UHGV virus genome: UHGV-0164984
DNA length: 35,681 nucleotides
Direction: 5' to 3' (one strand)
Source of the DNA: a virus
Shown: positions 1,929 through 31,032 of the stretch, one piece after another
How the letters are laid out: the number at the start of each line of letters is the position of its first letter
Position numbering within the stretch: position 1 is the stretch's first letter
Made by a program: the position numbers and the translations under genes
The notes under the pieces: generated by a model
Seen by the model: only the letters and a program-made list of their open reading frames with translations
Database searches by the model: none
What the model was told of the DNA's origin: nothing

Positions 1929-3107
1929 TTAACCAGTTTGAATTTCTCCATGGGGAACAACAACCCAATCTATATGGTTTTGCGTGTAGATCTTCGTCGA
2001 CTTCGCATCGCTATGCGCCATTCGTCCTTGTGGATCAATGCCTTGCTGATCGAAAAGATGCGCTGCTAATGCTCTAATTTCGTGAAAGGTTGGCCTTTCA
2101 TCCATCAGAAGATTGTCGCATAAACCTAACTTGTCGCGCGTAGCTGAAAATGACCGACTCAAATAGTCTGGTGCAACCTGAGTGGGGTGTGAAACCTCTT
2201 TGCTGCGTTTAACCTGCCGTTCTGGGAGCCTGTGAACGACAAACGGACTGGCCACATTATCTCGGCTATCGTCAATTATCCGTTTCAACTCTTCACCAAT
2301 TGGTATTGCAACGTGTGATGCCTCTTTTTTTTGCACTTTTTGCCTGTGGATGTAAAGCGTCCCATATATGCCATTTTGTGGTTGTTCGAACCAGACACAT
2401 CCACATATACCGTCTTTAGGTTCGCGAATTGAGTAACGGATTCGCGATACTTCGAGTCGTGCATGTGTAGTCTGCAATGCTAGGTCCATTGCTGTTCTTA
2501 ACCATGGTGCAGCGGCCTGCCTGATAGCTATAAAATGCTCGAGTGACAGGCGCCGTCTTTTCTTCTCATCAGTCCTACGCATTTTTTTTCTGATGGCCGG
2601 GTTATCCAGCATTAGTGATTCATCGACCGCATAAGAGAACAACTTTTTAAGAAAGCTGACCTTTCTGTTCTGCACATTTGCGGATGCGCTGGCATGATAT
2701 TTGTTGATGTAGGTATTAACGTGTTCAAGTTCGATATCGCATGCCGGAACATTTACGAAAAACGCTTTTACGCGTAGAGCGTCATTTTTCCAGTCATCTA
2801 AGGTGCTTTGGGAAGGACGTTCGTCTTCGATAATCCGGGTCATTATGTGATCAACATGTTCAGCAAATGGTTTTGCTTCTCCGATAACACCGCCAGATTC
2901 TCTAATAAGATTATCTACTGATGGAGATAATTCTGGTCGCATCCTCAGGTTGTACTCTCTGGCGATTGCAATGGCTATTGCCCTATCCTTACCTATATTT
3001 TTCTTCTTTCCGGTAATAAGTGTGAATTTATAAACACCTCGATCTTTATCAAAAATCAGATAATCAGGAAGATGTCTGTATTCTTTTTTACGTGGCCTTG
3101 CCGCCAT
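1929..3107 (-). CDS. Tyrosine-type site-specific integrase
   Basis: 392-394 aa ORF beside att and xis; C-terminal region with conserved R/H/Y-type catalytic residues (…HSDAKSTKIYTQ); second ATG at 3107 has GAGGG SD at 6 nt. Confidence 0.9.
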   Translation of the reverse strand: MAARPRKKEYRHLPDYLIFDKDRGVYKFTLITGKKKNIGKDRAIAIAIAREYNLRMRPELSPSVDNLIRESGGVIGEAKPFAEHVDHIMTRIIEDERPSQSTLDDWKNDALRVKAFFVNVPACDIELEHVNTYINKYHASASANVQNRKVSFLKKLFSYAVDESLMLDNPAIRKKMRRTDEKKRRRLSLEHFIAIRQAAAPWLRTAMDLALQTTHARLEVSRIRYSIREPKDGICGCVWFEQPQNGIYGTLYIHRQKVQKKEASHVAIPIGEELKRIIDDSRDNVASPFVVHRLPERQVKRSKEVSHPTQVAPDYLSRSFSATRDKLGLCDNLLMDERPTFHEIRALAAHLFDQQGIDPQGRMAHSDAKSTKIYTQNHIDWVVVPHGEIQTG

Positions 3108-3109
3108 GG

Positions 3110-3319
3110 TCATCCCTCATTTATTAACTTGCGAACAGCTTGACTAACCATTGAGTCGACTCCCCATTTTTCTGTTTCGCAGACAAAAACAGAACCGTCC
3201 ACGATGCGTCCCATGAGTAGACCGTTCTCGACCCAGCGTTTTATCGTTCGGTTGTCAGGAATTGAGCCATTAGAGAATTCACGGCGTCCCCATTGGCTCG
3301 CTTTCATTAGTTTTGCCAT
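3110..3319 (-). CDS. Excisionase (lambda Xis-like winged helix)
   Basis: MAKLMKASQWGRREFS...TIKRWVENG... parallels lambda Xis (…LQEWNARQRRPRSLETVRRWVREC…); GGAG SD 8 nt upstream of ATG at 3319; stop adjoins int start. Confidence 0.7.
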   Translation of the reverse strand: MAKLMKASQWGRREFSNGSIPDNRTIKRWVENGLLMGRIVDGSVFVCETEKWGVDSMVSQAVRKLINEG

Positions 3320-3380
3320 GGCTGTTTCTCCACTTAGCCCGCTGCACTCGGGCAGTAATATCAAATTCCAGTCCTGATAA

Positions 3381-3596: not shown

Positions 3597-3955
3597 TTCT
3601 TAGTCTCCGGTGCTTTCGGCATTACTGCCCAGTGAGTGATATTGACGTTTTCAAGGTCCCCGACCTGAAATGTCCACTGCCATTCTCCGGTTTCTTTTTG
3701 CCCCCATGTGTACCAGAGAGAACGCCAGCCAATCAGCCAGCCTTCTCCACTAGCATCAAATAACAGAACACTTTCATTTGCTGGTGGCAGTTCAGCTGAC
3801 ACTGGTATTATTTTGTTTTCCAGTGCCGCACATTTAGCTTCAAGCGCGTTGAATTTACGTACTAGGTACTCAGCATTTGTTTCGTTCACTTTCAGATCTC
3901 GCGGTACACATTTCCCGCGAAGAAACCCTTCCATTTCGAAAACATTCATGCGCAT
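3593..3955 (-). CDS. Hypothetical prophage protein
   Basis: 120 aa ORF, Trp-rich C-terminal half, overlaps neighbouring gene ends (operon). Confidence 0.5.
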   Translation of the reverse strand: MRMNVFEMEGFLRGKCVPRDLKVNETNAEYLVRKFNALEAKCAALENKIIPVSAELPPANESVLLFDASGEGWLIGWRSLWYTWGQKETGEWQWTFQVGDLENVNITHWAVMPKAPETKK

Positions 3956-4482
3956 TTGCGTAACTCCGATAACTCGTTAAAACGTTCCATAAACATCCCG
4001 TAGGCCTGGCCCGGTGCCAGTGGAATCACGTTGAACATCTCTGTTGCCGGGATGCCTTCCAGTACAGGCCAGAAAGAGCCATCATCAAGCCCGAGATCGC
4101 GGCGTTCGGTTGCCAGCATGATGAGATCGGCATATTTCACATGCGTGCTCATAACCGGGGGTAACCCGTATTTCTCACGGATTACGGCGTCTATTTTTTC
4201 TTCCATCCGTTTATAGTCAGGAAGAAGGCGTTTCAGTGGAGCCGGGATGTCCTGGCAATACGCTTCTGTTGCATCATGCATTAACGCTTCAAAAGCAAAT
4301 TCCTGCGGTACCAGCTGGCTGCAAAGCACCGCATGTTGGGCGACGCTGTAGAAGTGTGAAAGATGTCCTGCAAAGCGACAGATATTTGAAAGGGAAACCG
4401 CGATATCGTTAATAACGATGTCGTCTTTATTTATCCTGTCATAATAAAAATGCTTCCCGGAAAAAGTTTTAATAAATGACAT
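3946..4482 (-). CDS. HD-domain metal-dependent phosphohydrolase
   Basis: His...HD motifs (FAGHLSH...LMHDATEAY); ATG at 4482 preceded by GGAGA SD; ORF track extends to a GTG at 4509. Confidence 0.8.
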   Translation of the reverse strand: MSFIKTFSGKHFYYDRINKDDIVINDIAVSLSNICRFAGHLSHFYSVAQHAVLCSQLVPQEFAFEALMHDATEAYCQDIPAPLKRLLPDYKRMEEKIDAVIREKYGLPPVMSTHVKYADLIMLATERRDLGLDDGSFWPVLEGIPATEMFNVIPLAPGQAYGMFMERFNELSELRKCA

Positions 4483-4606
4483 TTTGTTCTCCACGTATAT
4501 GCGCTGCACCGCGCTGAATTCGGGTAAAAGGAAGCCCTCACCGTCCGGCGATTATTGAGTCAATTACATTTCCATAAATGCCCCCGTAGGGGCGGTTAGT
4601 TTCTCC

Positions 4607-4695
4607 ACAAAACAGAGAAGAACACCTGTGGTGGCAGCCGCCCGGATGGATTGGGTTATGAGCCCGTCGTCCGATGATGCTCTTCTCTGTTTTGT
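4607..4695. repeat. Perfect 15-bp inverted repeat (ACAAAACAGAGAAGA / TCTTCTCTGTTTTGT) enclosing 59 nt, within GC-rich ORF-poor spacer
   Basis: Arms at 4607-4621 and 4681-4695 are exact reverse complements; flanked by hairpins at about 4580-4593 and 4706-4739. Confidence 0.6.
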
Positions 4696-4740
4696 AAAAA
4701 GGACGGTACCAGCCGGAAGCAAGGGTACAAGCTGGTACCG
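4696..4740 (-). terminator. Candidate intrinsic terminator for leftward transcripts
   Basis: On the minus strand: stem GGTACCAGC / GCTGGTACC (9 bp, extendable) followed by UUUUU (plus-strand A-run 4696-4700). Confidence 0.45.
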
Positions 4741-4960
4741 CCAAGACAACACACAGCATAAAGTTGTGGTGCCGGGTGCCTCCCGGTGCCTGGCGAAGGT
4801 TGTACACCAGACGGGTGGGTATCCACAGAAGGTCGACTGTCAGCCTCAACCTTAACCCGCGTGCGCTGAGCCGCATTCACCACAACGCTAAGGATTCTCT
4901 CTGGTTGAAAATACTTAGCTGTTATGTGCCTGCTTTTAGCCACATCAGGCGAGGTGGACC

Positions 4961-4995
4961 TGGTTATTCCCCAACAACAAGGATTCGGTATAATC
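4961..4995 (+). promoter_or_regulatory. Candidate sigma70 promoter for rightward accessory operon
   Basis: Perfect TATAAT at 4989-4994 about 30 nt upstream of the first micro-ORF; -35 region weak. Confidence 0.35.
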
Positions 4996-5026
4996 TGGAT
5001 ATCCCAACAACAGGTAGGAAGGAAAT

Positions 5027-5110
5027 ATGTACGTAGATAGCAATGAAAAATTTCATGTTCCGGTAAATCAGAGACCAGCACCGATCCCTGAGCCGAAACC
5101 TGAAATGTAA
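5027..5110 (+). CDS. Proline-rich micro-ORF A (27 aa; MYVDSNEKFHVPVNQRPAPIPEPKPEM)
   Basis: Strong SD AGGAAGG 4-5 nt upstream of ATG; shares an HVP...RP.P.PEPKP motif with two downstream micro-ORFs. Confidence 0.4.
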   Translation: MYVDSNEKFHVPVNQRPAPIPEPKPEM

Positions 5111-5120
5111 GGGAATAGAG

Positions 5121-5600
5121 ATGACTCGAGACGATCTAGCATTCGATATTCATTATTCTTTCTTTCTTGAGAAAATGAATTACACCCTTTTAAATCGGAT
5201 AGACAAGAGCATAACTCTTGTTCTCATTGTCTTGGGCTTTTCTGTTTTTGCGCCATATAGCAATATGTTTATTTTTGGCGCATCTGTAGCTATTTTGTCG
5301 GTGCTTCAATTGGTATACCAATTTGGGCAGGAAGCTGGCTTATCAAAGGAACAGATGCGACAGTATAAAAGGTTGATTGTTGAGTTTTCCTCCCTTTCTG
5401 ATGACGAACTACGCACTCGGTTTTTAAAGGTTCAAGACGCTGATAGTAATCCATGGAGATCTTTACAAGATGCTGCGTTCAAACGGACCTGTATTGCGCT
5501 GGGACGTGTTGATGAGTCAGAAATATCATTCATGCATAGCGTTATCGCATGGTTTGCTGGAGATTTGCCTCGGTCAAAAAGGTGTAATAATGACAAATAG
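5121..5600 (+). CDS. Small membrane protein, two predicted TM helices, unknown function
   Basis: 159 aa; hydrophobic stretch LVLIVLGFSVFAPYSNMFIFGASVAILSVLQLVY; AT-rich; in immunity-adjacent position on strand opposite to cI. Confidence 0.6.
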   Translation: MTRDDLAFDIHYSFFLEKMNYTLLNRIDKSITLVLIVLGFSVFAPYSNMFIFGASVAILSVLQLVYQFGQEAGLSKEQMRQYKRLIVEFSSLSDDELRTRFLKVQDADSNPWRSLQDAAFKRTCIALGRVDESEISFMHSVIAWFAGDLPRSKRCNNDK

Positions 5601-5706
5601 AATTCCCATAATCCCTAACCATGTACCTCCAAAGCCCAGACCACCATCACCAAAGTCACACAGGCTTTATGAGTATGAATTAATAATGGATTCTATATTG
5701 AGATGA
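5590..5706 (+). CDS. Proline-rich micro-ORF B (38 aa; ...IPNHVPPKPRPPSPKSHR...)
   Basis: ATG at 5590 overlaps the upstream gene end; AGGTG SD; motif paralogous to micro-ORFs A and C. Confidence 0.35.
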   Translation: MTNRIPIIPNHVPPKPRPPSPKSHRLYEYELIMDSILR

Positions 5707-5710
5707 CCAA

Positions 5711-5800
5711 ATGAATGCATTTATATATACATGGAAAGAGGATCATATACCCTTAAAACCTCGTCCTTCACCGCCAGAACCGAAGCCAAAATCCCGTTAA
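5711..5800 (+). CDS. Proline-rich micro-ORF C (29 aa; MNAFIYTWKEDHIPLKPRPSPPEPKPKSR)
   Basis: Starts 5 nt after micro-ORF B stop; same HIP.KPRP.PPEPKP motif encoded with synonymous codon differences. Confidence 0.35.
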   Translation: MNAFIYTWKEDHIPLKPRPSPPEPKPKSR

Positions 5801-5837
5801 GTGTTGGGGATCTCCAGATTGTTAAAGAGCGAAGCGT

Positions 5838-5866
5838 CCTATAGGGCGCTTTTTTGTTGCTAACGA
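5838..5866 (+). terminator. Intrinsic terminator ending the rightward accessory operon
   Basis: Stem AAGCGTCC / GGGCGCTT with loop TATA, followed by TTTTTTG. Confidence 0.5.
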
Positions 5867-5929
5867 ATCATCCTGGACTTCATATGCCCCAGGCGGCTAC
5901 TTCGTGGGCGTCCTGCCTGTTCGTTGTTT

Positions 5930-5970
5930 CGCTTGGGTACATTATGTATCTCAAAGGTACATTGTCAAGT
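5930..5970 (-). promoter_or_regulatory. Candidate pL-like early-left promoter with CI operator half-sites
   Basis: On minus strand TTGACA (plus 5963-5968), 16-17 nt, CATAAT/ATAATG (plus 5940-5946); GGTACA half-sites at 5936-5941 and 5956-5961 resemble the cI-cro operators. Confidence 0.45.
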
Positions 5971-6007: not shown

Positions 6008-6682
6008 TTAGGCTTTGATTTTGTATCTTCTTGGTTTTCCTGAGAAAATCACTGTACCAATTATAGAGCAATTACCGTTGATCTTAATGTAAGGCTCAGG
6101 CCAGTTTGGGTTTAACGCTTTGAGATAACGCTGTGTCCCATCTTCTATCAACCTTTTGAAGGTGGTTTCACCTGTATCGTGCATCAATGCAATAACGTCG
6201 TCACCGTGGCAGGCAGGTACTTCAGGATCGACAAAAATCATGTCTCCCGGGCGGTACTCATCAATCATTGAATCACCTATCACCCGCAAGATATAAGTCA
6301 TTTCCCCACAGGGTACAGGGCAGGGATACGTTTCTGCTGTGCTCAAATCAACCTCAGAATATCCAACTTCTTTCCATGCTCCGGCCTGTACCCATGATAT
6401 GACAGGGACTAATGTGATTTGTTTATTAGTGATTGAAACATCAGGTTTTTTTGTGATGTTCGTTGTCTGGTGTTCTTGATCGAGCCATCCGACAGGCAGG
6501 TCGAAACATTTTTCGATGTGTCGTGCCATGCTGTCACCGATATTTTTAGTAGCACCATCTCCCATAAACCTGCTGGTCTGGGTTGGCTCGCGATCAATCA
6601 TAGTGGCAAAGGAAGAATTCCCGCCAACACCATCTCTCAGTTTTCTGGCGTTAGACCGCCGGATGTCATGGATTGTTTTCAT
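6008..6682 (-). CDS. CI-type phage repressor (HTH + S24 LexA-like peptidase domain)
   Basis: 224 aa; C-terminal GDSM serine motif and downstream Lys (TFKRL) typical of S24 autoproteolytic repressors; divergent from cro with operators between. Confidence 0.9.
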   Translation of the reverse strand: MKTIHDIRRSNARKLRDGVGGNSSFATMIDREPTQTSRFMGDGATKNIGDSMARHIEKCFDLPVGWLDQEHQTTNITKKPDVSITNKQITLVPVISWVQAGAWKEVGYSEVDLSTAETYPCPVPCGEMTYILRVIGDSMIDEYRPGDMIFVDPEVPACHGDDVIALMHDTGETTFKRLIEDGTQRYLKALNPNWPEPYIKINGNCSIIGTVIFSGKPRRYKIKA

Positions 6683-11877: not shown

Positions 11878-11894
11878 TTTTGTGGAGAAGGTTG

Positions 11895-12242
11895 ATGCGT
11901 GATATGTATGAAGTATTGGAGCGCTGGGGAGCATGGGCTACAGCAGATAATAGTGGCGTGGACTGGCAGCCGATAGCAGCAGGCTTCAAGGGGCTTTTAC
12001 CTCATGGCAAAAAGTCCCGGATTCAGTGTGATGATGATGAGGGGCTCATGATCGATGGGTGCGTAGCTAGATTAAGAAAGTACAAACCAGAAGAGTATGA
12101 ACTTATCGTTGCCCATTTTGTTATAGGAGTATCAATACGTACCATTGCAAAGAAAAGGAAATGTTCAGATGGGACTGTCAGAAAAGAATTGCAAGCCGCA
12201 ATTGGATTTGTGGAAGGCGTATTTAGTATTTTAAATATGTAA
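11895..12242 (+). CDS. Late-gene antitermination protein Q
   Basis: LERWGAWA...VDW...GFKGLLPHGKKSRIQCDDDEGL...IAKKRKCSDGTVRKELQ resembles Q-antiterminator family; precedes lysis region. Confidence 0.7.
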   Translation: MRDMYEVLERWGAWATADNSGVDWQPIAAGFKGLLPHGKKSRIQCDDDEGLMIDGCVARLRKYKPEEYELIVAHFVIGVSIRTIAKKRKCSDGTVRKELQAAIGFVEGVFSILNM

Positions 12243-18348: not shown

Positions 18349-20078
18349 GCCGGAAATCTTACCCCAACGTAAATGCTGCCAATCAGTATGCCCGTGATGT
18401 CGTGCGCGGAAAGATTGTGGCCTGCCAGTTTGTGATTCAGGCCTGCCAGCGCCATCTTGATGACCTGATGGCGGAAAAAAGTAAGTCGTTTCGTTACCGC
18501 TTCGACAAGGACCTGGCTGAACGGGCCGCCAAATTTATTCAGCTGTTGCCGCACACCAAGGGTGAGTGGGCATTCAAGAGGATGCCCATCACGCTGGAGC
18601 CGTGGCAGCTCTTTGTGATCTGCTGCGCGTTTGGCTGGGTCAATAAAGGCTCCCGGCTGCGCCGCTTCAGGGAGGTGTATACCGAAATCCCCCGTAAGAA
18701 CGGCAAATCGGCAATCTCTGCCGGTGTCGCCCTGTATTGTTTTGCCTGTGATAACGAGTTTGGCGCGGAAGTGTATTCCGGTGCCACGACGGAGAAACAG
18801 GCGTGGGAAGTCTTTCGCCCGGCGCGACTGATGTGTAAACGCACACCCATGCTGACGGAAGCGTTCGGGATTGAGGTTAACGCCTCAAACATGAACCGTC
18901 CGGAGGATGGCGCGCGGTTTGAACCGCTGATCGGTAACCCCGGTGATGGTTCATCACCCCACTGTGCTGTGGTGGATGAATATCACGAGCACGCCACCGA
19001 TGCGCTTTACACCACGATGCTTACCGGGATGGGGGCGCGACGTCAGCCACTGATGTGGGCCATCACCACCGCCGGGTACAACATTGAGGGGCCGTGCTAC
19101 GACAAGCGGCGGGAAGTCATCGAGATGCTCAACGGCTCGGTGCCTAACGATGAACTGTTCGGGATCATCTATACCGTTGATGAAGGTGACGACTGGACCG
19201 ACCCGCAGGTGCTGGAAAAAGCCAATCCAAATATTGGCGTGTCGGTTTATCGCGAATTTTTGTTAAGTCAGCAGCAGCGTGCGAAAAATAACGCCCGTCT
19301 GGCAAACGTCTTTAAAACAAAACACCTCAATATCTGGGTGTCGGCGCGTTCGGCGTATTTCAACCTGGTGAGCTGGCAGAGCTGCGAGGATAAATCACTG
19401 ACCCTTGAGCAGTTCGAGGGGCAGCCGTGCATTCTGGCCTTTGACCTGGCGCGTAAGCTGGATATGAACAGCATGGCGCGACTTTATACCCGCGAGATTG
19501 ACGGTAAAACGCATTATTACAGTGTGGCCCCGCGTTTCTGGGTACCGTATGACACGGTGTACAGCGTCGAGAAAAATGAAGATCGACGGACAGCCGAACG
19601 CTTTCAGAAATGGGTGGAAATGGGCGTTCTGACCGTTACCGATGGTGCGGAGGTGGATTATCGCTACATCCTCGAGGAGGCCAAAGCGGCGAACAAAATC
19701 AGCCCGGTCAGTGAGTCACCCATCGACCCCTTCGGGGCGACCGGGTTGTCACATGACCTTGCTGATGAAGACCTGAACCCCATCACTATCATTCAGAACT
19801 ACACCAACATGTCCGACCCGATGAAAGAGCTGGAAGCGGCAATTGAATCGGGGCGCTTTCATCATGACGGCAATCCCATCATGACCTGGTGTATCGGCAA
19901 CGTGGTCGGCAAAACCATTCCGGGTAACGATGATGTGGTGAAGCCCGTCAAAGAGCAGGCGGAAAACAAAATCGATGGTGCAGTTGCGCTGATTATGGCG
20001 GTTGGCAGAGCCATGCTGTACGAGAAAGAAGACACGCTGTCTGACCACATTGAGTCCTATGGGATCCGCTCGCTTTAA
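18345..20078 (+). CDS. Terminase large subunit
   Basis: 577 aa; ATPase and nuclease-like regions; ATGA overlap with small subunit. Confidence 0.95.
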
Positions 20079-29703: not shown

Positions 29704-31032
29704 ATGACGTGGAAAGACAGACTTCAGGACGCGTCATTTCGCGGTGTGCCGTTTAAGGTTGAAGAAGAAAGTGCGGGAACCGGCCGTCGTGTGGAAACAC
29801 ACGAATATCCGAACCGCGACAAACCCTATACCGAAGATCTGGGAAAAGTCACTTTCCGCCCGTCCATCACGGCTTATGTGGTGGGCGATGACTGCTTTGA
29901 CCAGCGCGATCGCCTGATTGACGCGCTGAATAAACCCGGTCCCGGCACGCTTGTCCATCCGACATACGGTGAGCTGAAAGTCTGTGTTGACGGGGAAGTT
30001 CGGGTCAGCACATCGAAGAATGAAGGGCGTATTGTCCGCTTTGACCTGAAGTTTGTCGAAGCGGGAGAACTCTCTTACCCCATATCAGGTGCGGCGACGG
30101 CGCAGACGCTGATGTCATCCTGTTCTGCACTGGATGACTGCATCAGTGACAGTTTCAGAGGTTTCAGTATCGATGGCGTGGCGGATTTTGTGCAGAACGA
30201 CGTCGTCGGTAATGCCAGCACAATGCTGGGGTATGTTTCTGATGCGATGAAAGTGGTGGATTCTGCCGTATCGGATGCCGCCAGGCTGTTGCAGGGGGAT
30301 ATCTCGGTACTTCTGTCGCCGCCATCGTCAGGCAAAAATTTCGTTGAGCAGGTGCAGAAAATGTGGCGTACCGGGAAACGCCTTTATGGTAACGCCAGCG
30401 ACCTGGTCACCATGATCAAAACGCTTTCCGGTGTCAGCCTCGGCAGCGATCTGCAACCGCGCGGCGTCTGGAAAACGGACAGTAAAACCACCGCCACGGC
30501 GACGCAGCAGCGTAACGTGGTTGCCAGCACCCTTCGTACGACCGCAATCAGCGAAGCGGCGTATGCCGTCACCCGATTGCCTGCGCCAACAACTTCCGCG
30601 GTGATGCAGAATGCCGCAGTGGGGCAGGCAACAACACCCGCGCAGAGCACTGGCTGGCCTTCCGTCACGCATCCGGCACTGAACAATGCACCGGCGGTGA
30701 AAAGCACGGTTGACCTGCCAACGTGGGAAGAACTGACTGACATTCGCGACACACTGAATACGGCAATTGATAAGGAGTTGTCCCGTACAACCAGTGATGC
30801 GCTGTTTCTGGCGCTGCGCCGGGTGAAAGCAGATCTGAATGCGGATATCAACACGCGCCTTGAACAGTCTGCACGGATCATTCAGCGCACGCCGGATGAG
30901 GTTTTACCCGCGCTGGTGCTGGCGGCGACCTGGTTTGATAACGCGGCGCGTGACGGGGACATTATCCGGCGTAATGCCATTACGCATCCCGGCTTTGTGC
31001 CGGTGATCCCTCTGAAGGTGCCAGTGCAATGA
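29704..31032 (+). CDS. DNA circularization protein (Mu gpN-like) of baseplate module
   Basis: ATG at 29704 with GGAG SD; N-terminus WKDRLQDASFRGVPF...HEYPNRD resembles Mu N family. Confidence 0.8.
   Translation: MTWKDRLQDASFRGVPFKVEEESAGTGRRVETHEYPNRDKPYTEDLGKVTFRPSITAYVVGDDCFDQRDRLIDALNKPGPGTLVHPTYGELKVCVDGEVRVSTSKNEGRIVRFDLKFVEAGELSYPISGAATAQTLMSSCSALDDCISDSFRGFSIDGVADFVQNDVVGNASTMLGYVSDAMKVVDSAVSDAARLLQGDISVLLSPPSSGKNFVEQVQKMWRTGKRLYGNASDLVTMIKTLSGVSLGSDLQPRGVWKTDSKTTATATQQRNVVASTLRTTAISEAAYAVTRLPAPTTSAVMQNAAVGQATTPAQSTGWPSVTHPALNNAPAVKSTVDLPTWEELTDIRDTLNTAIDKELSRTTSDALFLALRRVKADLNADINTRLEQSARIIQRTPDEVLPALVLAATWFDNAARDGDIIRRNAITHPGFVPVIPLKVPVQ

Follow-up and report, generated by a model that had tools for sequence, protein, structure and literature searches.

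A modular structured RNA unit related to STnc100/PasD in the early-left leader of an Escherichia coli lambdoid prophage, with a putative terminator gate

The viral genome UHGV-0164984 (35,681 nucleotides (nt), below called the window) is an Escherichia coli lambdoid prophage, in which an initial annotation had singled out a spacer at 4540-5020 for its inverted repeats and had placed it, correctly, within the early-left operon. We found that positions 4957-4603 probably form one minus-strand RNA unit of interchangeable modules, located within the untranslated leader of the early-left promoter pL. From its 5′ end the unit consists of a conserved start (module Z), a hairpin (P0), a multi-helix domain (X), a linker resembling a part of RprA, an intrinsic terminator (T1), and a long hairpin (module B) (Table 1). 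The unit is best filed in the STnc100/PasD superfamily, below the formal cut-off and with a new genomic role and newly attached modules. The leader would probably operate as a terminator gate, giving either a terminated product that resembles a small RNA (sRNA) or read-through into the early-left genes. The initial observation is confirmed, and its interpretation (a cluster of early-left terminators, a cis-acting antitermination RNA as in the HK022 put sites, or a structured small RNA) is supported in part.

The inverted repeats are real, are not due to chance, and all lie where they were first described. The perfect 15-nt arms (4607-4621/4681-4695) lengthen to DNA repeats of 18 nt with one mismatch (4607-4624/4678-4695, 53 nt between them), and this single mismatch is a G-U pair in the minus-strand RNA. 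The stem first given as 9 bp is in fact a perfect 10-nt repeat (GGTACCAGC/GCTGGTACC, 4704-4713/4731-4740), and the GCCCC/GGGGC hairpin is present at 4580-4593. In 4540-5020 the longest perfect inverted repeat measures 15 nt, compared to a mean of 7.7 nt and a maximum of 11 nt in 200 dinucleotide shuffles. Relative to shuffles, the fold of the whole region has z = -4.0 on the minus strand and z = -2.7 on the plus strand. The interval is also GC-rich, as had been noted, with a GC fraction of 0.54-0.55 versus approximately 0.43-0.45 in the flanks.

The 10-nt repeat and its neighboring A-run had been read as a terminator on the minus strand, and this reading holds: a GC-rich stem of 13 bp directly precedes U5 (the plus-strand A-run 4696-4700) on the transcribed strand. 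The stem of this terminator, T1, has a folding energy of -23 kcal/mol (z = -5.0 against shuffles), and it is missed by a simple terminator scan because its 15-nt loop is larger than usual. T1 aligns with the terminator part of the STnc100 model, and a hairpin plus T-run follows the X domain in 114 of 123 related copies. No other strong minus-strand terminator was found further down the early-left operon. The proposed cluster of terminators is thus reduced to one good terminator, since the 15-bp stem forms the base of a three-way-junction hairpin without a U-tract, and the GCCCC hairpin is specific to the junction variant of the window and has only a weak AUUUAU tail.

That three-way-junction hairpin, module B, has a stem of -45.6 kcal/mol (z = -6.8), which none of 200 shuffles equals. 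A comparison of 17 distinct arm pairs shows two-sided changes or three pair types at six of the 18 positions of the stem (4, 9, 11, 12, 15, and 16). The wobble (G-U) pairs occur on the minus strand only, which fixes the strand and favors an RNA over a DNA palindrome. Module B is also found combined with other X types, specifically in phage mEp460, Stx2 phages, Klebsiella, and Kosakonia.

Matches to the interval occur in 2771 of the 5426 complete E. coli genomes, and in 1274 of these they cover 80% or more of its length; they also occur in the e14 prophage and in phages SfV, SfII, SfIV, ST64B, and others, while mEp460 and the Stx2 phages have only T1 and module B in common with it by BLAST. The unit lies between the repressor (cI) side and the first early-left gene, on the same strand, in SfV, ST64B, mEp460, Stx2a_WGPS2, LLS, Eeyore, and phiES15. 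Module Z is kept in e14, SfV, phiES15, LLS, Eeyore, and Klebsiella phage Kp4866-6, and starts in LLS about 15-20 nt past the predicted pL. At the location of P0, related phages have a closed domain of 90-120 nt (the Y domain) instead; ST64B, phiES15, and the Stx2 phages carry differing sequences at this position but retain a closing helix. The conservation common to SfV, e14, and mEp460 stops at approximately position 4596, and other phages have, in place of the GCCCC hairpin, a GACC-UUGCA-GGGUC hairpin immediately ahead of the site where ribosomes bind for the first early-left gene.

Scanning viral contigs with gapped patterns yielded 40 distinct X cores, 110-135 nt long, among which at least seven centre sequences are unrelated to one another. 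Each centre type is predicted to fold, independently of the others, into the same order P1-AAU-P2-centre-P4, and canonical STnc100 cores likewise. A covariance model (R1), built on 14 sequences with the window sequence among the seeds, recovers all X types at E ≤ 1e-3; the score of the window X (110.6 bits) is a self-match. In the R1 alignment 98.6% of the cells are paired and eight of 17 pairs have changed on both sides. None of 500 shuffles reaches the observed percentage of pairing, number of both-side changes or covariation score, and slid controls are 33-67% paired. Several of the changes are single splits, such as those between early-left and canonical copies, the A-U outer pair of P1 in phiES15 and the form GGUGG/CCACC of P4 in LLS and Klebsiella. 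MAFFT does not bring P4 and P3c of different types into one register, which for P4 was solved via the alignment to R1. The covariance analysis across related prophages that had been suggested at the outset finds the stems kept and the helices covarying. Together with the folds and the absent coding signature (see below), this bears out a structured RNA instead of a gene. A second copy of X was not found in the window by Rfam, the descriptor scan or R1.

At the curated gathering cut-offs of Rfam the interval gives no match, and the relation to STnc100 appears in E-value mode. There, the whole STnc100 model (RF02076, positions 1-206) is aligned to 4916-4693 on the minus strand, including the 3′ terminator, with a score of 39.6 bits (E = 5e-7 for an 800-nt region and 2.2e-5 for the whole window). 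The homologues of SfV, phiES15, ST64B, and e14 score 39.5, 40.6, 35.1, and 29.2 bits with this model, and the canonical STnc100 of phage VT2-Sakai scores 207.7 bits. Canonical STnc100 and the unit share the closing helix P1, the AAU junction, P2, a variable centre, P4 stacked on P1, a linker, and an intrinsic terminator, as well as an identical CACCGGGAGGCACCCGGCACCA segment. Both are prophage-borne and modular, as is PasD. P2 and the outer pairs of P1 differ between them through compensatory changes, and the window unit has an RprA-like linker (0 of 128 canonical copies) and modules Z, P0, and the long hairpin, unlike the canonical copies. STnc100 is a prophage sRNA with 11 copies in strain EDL933, one of which was confirmed by Northern blot as a discrete RNA, and its canonical members are discrete, terminated RNAs of about 200 nt that stop at the equivalent of T1 (PMC5331693). 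One copy is located 75 nt downstream of stx2B (PMC12370729). A relationship between STnc100 and PasD is described in a 2026 preprint (bioRxiv 10.64898/2026.05.13.724894). PasD (PasD1/PasD2 of lambdoid prophages) requires Hfq for its stability and has known partners from RIL-seq, a ligation-based way of sequencing interacting RNAs (PMC8550237). The homology fits the idea of a structured small RNA put forward in the initial annotation. Upstream of canonical STnc100 cores (L371, positions 3940-4000, and others) we noted conserved promoter-like hexamers, TTGACA / TTGCCT ... TGTTAAAAA. They overlap the first approximately 30 positions of the Rfam model, which may therefore include promoter DNA.

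RprA is an Hfq-dependent sRNA of the core genome that activates rpoS and ricI. The window stretch ACAACUUUAUGCUGUGUGUUGUCUUGGC matches nt 52-80 of RprA (ACAACGAAUUGCUGUGUGUAGUCUUUGC) at 23 of 28 positions, with a local alignment score of 28 that is not reached by any of 1000 shuffles. Of the rpoS-pairing region, at the position that we take it to have, only the 3′ end (ACAAC) falls within the aligned 28 nt. Eeyore and LLS share 24 identical nt (AUUGCUGUGUGUAGUCUUUGCCCA) with nt 59-82 of E. coli RprA and have a similar terminator (RprA sequence from PMC5606850 and PMC7311995). The RprA-like motif is present in 75 of 77 type-A copies, both type-F copies, and three of five ST64B-type copies, and is absent from all 32 mEp460-type copies. 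The Rfam RprA model (RF00034, cut-off 70 bits) gives weak matches of about 41 bits over P4, linker, and T1 in Eeyore, LLS (41.2 bits for the Eeyore and LLS copies), and phiES15, which come from the 3′ part only; the window has no match to this model at E values up to 10. The 5′ hairpin of RprA is missing from the unit, and the linker copy in the window is followed by a terminator sequence of its own, unlike in RprA. Between RprA nt 30-50 and the 5′ part of canonical STnc100, 19 of 22 positions match, which is not significant alone (53 of 1000 shuffles reach the score). The preprint on the Pas RNAs makes no mention of RprA, and we found no literature describing RprA-like prophage RNAs. In the predicted minimum free energy fold the RprA-like linker is paired with the upstream GGCACAUAAC; covariation support for this helix was not obtained. 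The upstream CACAAC may alternatively pair with the 5′ strand of P1.

The source of the transcript is most likely pL. No convincing sigma-70 promoter was found directly upstream of Z or P0, either in a promoter scan or by eye across the variants, and the TATAAT at 4989-4994 faces away from the unit; transcription of the window copy hence most likely starts at pL, some 1 kb upstream, and crosses an insert that is antisense to it. The promoter is overlapped by an ATGTAC-N7-(G/A)TACAT operator that resembles the sites between cI and cro, and e14 has the same promoter and leader. Transcripts from pL would stop at T1 or pass through it. The stopped ones would be organized like an Hfq-type sRNA, in which a structured body is followed by a conserved linker and then by a terminator hairpin with a U-tail. 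Those that pass would fold the 25-bp hairpin and continue into yfdR and onward to xis-int, so that T1 would resemble tL1 as a gate on early-left expression. The long hairpin may most simply be a site of double-strand processing or stability that parts the leader from the mRNA. In the lambda N leader an RNase III site occupies the equivalent place, and a 25-bp duplex is of the kind that RNase III cuts. The e14 genes ymfH, ymfJ, xisE, and intE are jointly induced by DNA damage (PMC11228462; PMC12132413) and form a common expression module (PMC12132413). Their co-induction would fit a single inducible early-left unit that passes T1 at least partly. Pairing of X with the 5′ arm of T1, as an antiterminator in the manner of a riboswitch, was also considered and was rejected because by inspection it is not conserved between the types.

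Several points weigh against this explanation. Without a promoter of its own, the copy may not be made in a repressed lysogen, which weakens a trans-acting role. Canonical STnc100 has its own promoter and is located in the late region between stx2B and the nanS-p esterase, whereas the unit of the window is in the pL leader and is no stand-alone gene downstream of stx. Its STnc100 score of 39.6 bits is lower than the gathering cut-off of 47, so that it is not a member of the family by cut-off. The R1 alignment was fitted to the model, the search patterns fixed P1 in most of the sequences, and most of the P1 covariation rests on few splits. Pairing of the linker in the predicted fold means that it may not be free as a seed, and a search of the window for the complement of the linker matched only the element itself and no target. 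Finally, T1 of phiES15 is very strong and directly precedes kil-gam, which suggests some active antitermination that the proposed gate leaves unexplained.

The K-12 e14 homologue of the interval (89% DNA identity) is annotated as the protein YmfH, and a genuine coding gene across the interval had been named at the outset as one finding that would overturn an RNA. The spacer had been described as free of open reading frames (ORFs). This needs qualifying, as mechanical ORFs do exist (112 and 141 amino acids (aa) on the minus strand, 75 and 90 aa on the plus strand), none of which belongs to a Pfam or PADLOC family. The ymfH frame corresponds to the ORF of 112 aa, starts at an AUG in the conserved GGUGAAUGCGG junction and runs through X, T1, and the long hairpin; a protein-coding ymfH, by chance rich in inverted repeats, would hence contain an intrinsic terminator and a 25-bp hairpin. 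The gene is annotated in K-12 and in many RefSeq genomes, its frame is open in most type-A copies and its synonymous fraction is slightly above that of the other two frames. On the other hand, RefSeq calls the window copy a frameshifted hypothetical protein, and in all other X types with the same neighbors the frame ends after 6-45 codons. The 45 variant alleles among 44 distinct type-A sequences are spread over codon positions 1/2/3 as 15/11/19, and comprise 19 synonymous changes, 23 non-synonymous changes, and three stops. With neither a conserved frame nor a coding pattern of substitution, we consider a real YmfH protein highly improbable. At 42 type-A loci (L144, for example) the open frame joins the next gene in-frame (MASERSTDV...), and gene callers may consequently predict N-terminally extended proteins. 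Over-expression of a ‘ymfH’ clone triggers the toxin of retron Sen2 (bioRxiv 10.1101/2020.06.22.160242); since this clone begins with the AUG that lies within X, its effect could come from RNA and not protein.

Even less credible is an element that acts as DNA, i.e., a palindrome for protein binding, a site of recombination or a small transposable insert with the 18-bp inverted repeats as its ends. Such an element would agree with the near-perfect terminal repeats, 53 nt apart, and with the exchange of modules between phages at sharp boundaries. However, the commonest variant has a G-U pair that on the opposite strand is A-C, a mismatch in DNA, the other wobbles are all on the same strand, the base of the stem pairs with the U-tract of T1 through G-U pairs, and the element keeps one position with respect to T1 and the next gene. 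A purely cis-acting leader is less probable than the explanation that we favor. Here the structures would help a long untranslated leader to survive because they resist Rho and RNase E and fold cleanly, and T1 would be a leaky attenuator with no trans-acting RNA product. The missing promoter and the possible base-pairing of the linker agree with this, as do related phages with untranslated leaders of 600-900 nt made of such modules and a boxA near pL (see below) that fits Rho protection of untranslated RNA. Against it, X-T1 units homologous to this one exist elsewhere as independent sRNA genes that have a promoter of their own, and the linker reproduces exactly a conserved segment of RprA that divergent X types have retained, which is hard to explain by structure alone.

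Processive antitermination of the put kind, in which X (possibly with Z) would stay on the RNA polymerase and carry pL transcripts past T1 and later terminators in place of N, is unlikely in our assessment. No N-like gene was found, X begins about 4 nt into the pL transcript in some phages (L178-type), all early-left genes lie behind T1 (very strong in phiES15), LLS and Eeyore have a second leader terminator (T0), and xisE and intE are co-induced with ymfH in e14. The comparison with HK022 put drawn in the initial annotation nevertheless fails in every feature that could be checked: the best blastn-short match to the put sequences is 10 nt (E = 0.42), HK022 has no match with the R1 or STnc100 model, the unit is single with no copy in the pR operon, and its size and fold are unlike those of put. 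In addition, canonical relatives do stop at T1 and build up as RNAs of about 200 nt, and X is also found inside tRNA arrays with no terminator behind it. As X occurs at the first nt of pL transcripts, ahead of nanS-p in the late operon and inside tRNA arrays, it could, as a tentative and rather doubtful idea, be an exchangeable RNA device, widespread in phages, that works on the polymerase or a host factor and decides the fate of the next terminator (a put- or riboswitch-like gate), with RprA as a cut-down descendant or donor of this phage RNA superfamily.

The leader that contains the unit begins with a conserved module. Its first approximately 80 nt (5855-5934, minus strand) are conserved in e14 (L002) and in phage Eeyore (L370), with a hairpin stem that covaries (CCUGG/CCAGG vs CCGG/CCGG) and a loop that contains UAUGAA; this hairpin may be a nut-like site. 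Eeyore has the uninterrupted series pL - leader - Z - Y - X - T1 - B - gene, and its first leader module is that of the window and e14, where other genes are inserted between this module and module Z. The statement that no N-like antiterminator gene is evident downstream of pL holds, and YmfJ, which occupies the N slot in e14 and phiES15, is not arginine-rich; yet an exact rrn-type boxA is present outside the interval. It is the sole match to GCUCUUUAACAA in the window at up to one mismatch, and of 128 related loci 38 carry this 12-mer on the RNA strand, at a distance of 700-950 nt upstream of X. The hairpin ahead of it is, on the plus strand, the terminator of the inserted gene cassette (5831-5852), and the boxA may protect pL transcription from Rho across the antisense, untranslated insert. 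The slot of the insert holds different genes in other loci (ymfI and ymfJ in e14). The 159-aa ORF of the insert has hydrophobic stretches and no Pfam or PADLOC match. The block 4958-5020, likely the promoter and 5′ region of the insert, swaps between loci independently of the RNA unit.

Table 1. Features of the RNA unit and its surroundings (positions in the window).
Feature	Position	Strand	Description
Module Z	4957-4920	minus	two small hairpins, CCACCUCGCCUGAUGUGG hairpin and then CUAAAAGCAGGCACAUAAC; conserved 5′ end of unit
P0 hairpin	4919-4887	minus	GCUAAGUAUUUUC...GAGAAUCCUUAGC; -10.4 kcal/mol, z = -4.8
X domain	4886-4763	minus	124 nt, multi-helix, STnc100-like core
P1	4886-4878 with 4771-4763	minus	9-bp closing helix GUUGUGGUG/CACCACAAC, followed by AAU junction
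P2	4874-4859	minus	
P3a	4853-4829	minus	central hairpin
P3b	4826-4815	minus	central hairpin
P3c	4812-4788	minus	central hairpin
P4	4786-4772	minus	CCGGG-AGGCA-CCCGG; abuts 3′ strand of P1
Linker	4762-4743	minus	RprA-like stretch 4767-4740
T1	4742-4730/4714-4702 (stem), 4700-4696 (U5)	minus	intrinsic terminator, 13-bp stem, 15-nt loop
Module B	4700-4676/4627-4603	minus	long hairpin, 25-bp stem; bears hairpins 4673-4644 and 4643-4634
GCCCC-UAC-GGGGGC hairpin	4593-4580	minus	specific to junction variant of the window
pL	5968-5941	minus	TTGACA-16-CATAAT, directly after cI terminator; outside interval
boxA	5830-5819	minus	exact rrn-type GCUCUUUAACAA, preceded by hairpin; about 105 nt downstream of pL start; outside interval
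Inserted cassette	4958-5852	plus	against pL; small ORF from 5028, 159-aa ORF 5121-5600, terminator 5831-5852
Likely promoter and 5′ region of insert	4958-5020	plus	outside RNA unit; TATAAT 4989-4994 and two GTTGTTGGGGAWAWCCAG-like direct repeats
int	1929-3113	minus	
Excisionase-like gene and small genes	between int and yfdR	minus	
yfdR	3946-4482	minus	
cI/LexA-like repressor	6008-6682	minus	followed by cro- and cII-like genes
Q antiterminator	11880-12242		

The leaders of related phages differ in length and content. L178-type phages have the same hexamers in pL as in pR, and their pL ends 10 nt before P1, which places X at the very start of the transcript. In Stx2a_WGPS2 the predicted pL is followed by approximately 665 untranslated nt with a Y domain, X, T1, and module B. 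The leaders of LLS, Eeyore, and the Klebsiella phage measure 0.6-0.9 kb, with the extra terminator T0 in LLS and Eeyore. The Y domain of Stx2 and Klebsiella leaders (L006, positions 3230-3355; L367; L204) contains two hairpins with T-loop-like sequences, GGUUCAAUUCC and GUUCGAUUC, which could be tRNA-derived or form a T-loop tertiary module; in L204, the one of these three that was scanned with ARAGORN, no tRNA gene was reported. In the viral contigs L139, L147, L169, and L227, X with upstream Y domains is located within or directly upstream of phage tRNA arrays, sometimes in tandem and with ACACAAC spacers between the domains. X itself might be read as tRNA-like, with P1 stacked on P4 and a possible contact of the P2 loop with the P4 loop. 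In L155, L168, and L179, X/Y domains are found in non-coding regions of about 0.7 kb beside portal genes. To the right of cro, L003-L006 and L178 encode a C4 antisense RNA and isrK (both above the Rfam cut-offs) in an antirepressor-like region; the window has neither. Weak Rfam matches in the window are HPnc0260 (38 bits, E = 0.8) and Polynucleobacter-1 (25 bits, E = 0.1). These two and one descriptor match with an X-like closing helix lie on its plus strand at 261-404, 29899-30051, and 19932-20051; the descriptor match (19932-20051) was discarded as a second X as it has no R1 support, and these matches are probably due to chance.

The K-12 ‘y-gene’ ymfH and many RefSeq ‘hypothetical protein’ copies can thus be re-read as a structured RNA. 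STnc100/PasD, so far seen as a late-region sRNA of Stx phages, would become a wider, modular superfamily, of which the Rfam model misses most subtypes. A large group of lambdoid phages (SfV, ST64B, e14, mEp460, and some Stx2 phages) opens its early-left operon with a structured, terminator-bearing leader of 0.2-0.9 kb and has no N gene, which raises the question of how phages without N get past the terminators of their leaders. The exact RprA segment in phage leaders, in turn, suggests traffic between core and phage sRNAs.

Among known systems, the putL and putR sites of HK022 resemble the unit in that the pL leader of a lambdoid phage without an N gene contains a structured RNA upstream of a terminator, and some relatives of the unit also start within a few nt of the pL start. 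The put RNA measures about 70 nt with two stems (PMC9378689), whereas the X domain of the window is a multi-helix junction of about 125 nt plus flanks. The put sites are paired, past pL and pR, while the window has one copy at about 1 kb from pL and none downstream of pR, and relatives of the unit, unlike put, terminate at the terminator that follows. The lambda pL leader (nutL, tL1, and the RNase III site of the N leader) is similar in layout, with promoter-proximal RNA signals including a boxA near pL, a gating terminator, and a long double-stranded hairpin just before the first gene; the window differs from lambda in having no N gene and a boxA that is of the rrn type and situated on an inserted cassette. 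In Stx phages, the sRNA StxS reportedly arises from early termination of the pR′ transcript. StxS resembles our proposal in that the leader of a phage operon, once terminated, also serves as a regulatory sRNA while antiterminated polymerase reads through, but it belongs to another promoter and operon, is unrelated in sequence and lacks a large structured domain.

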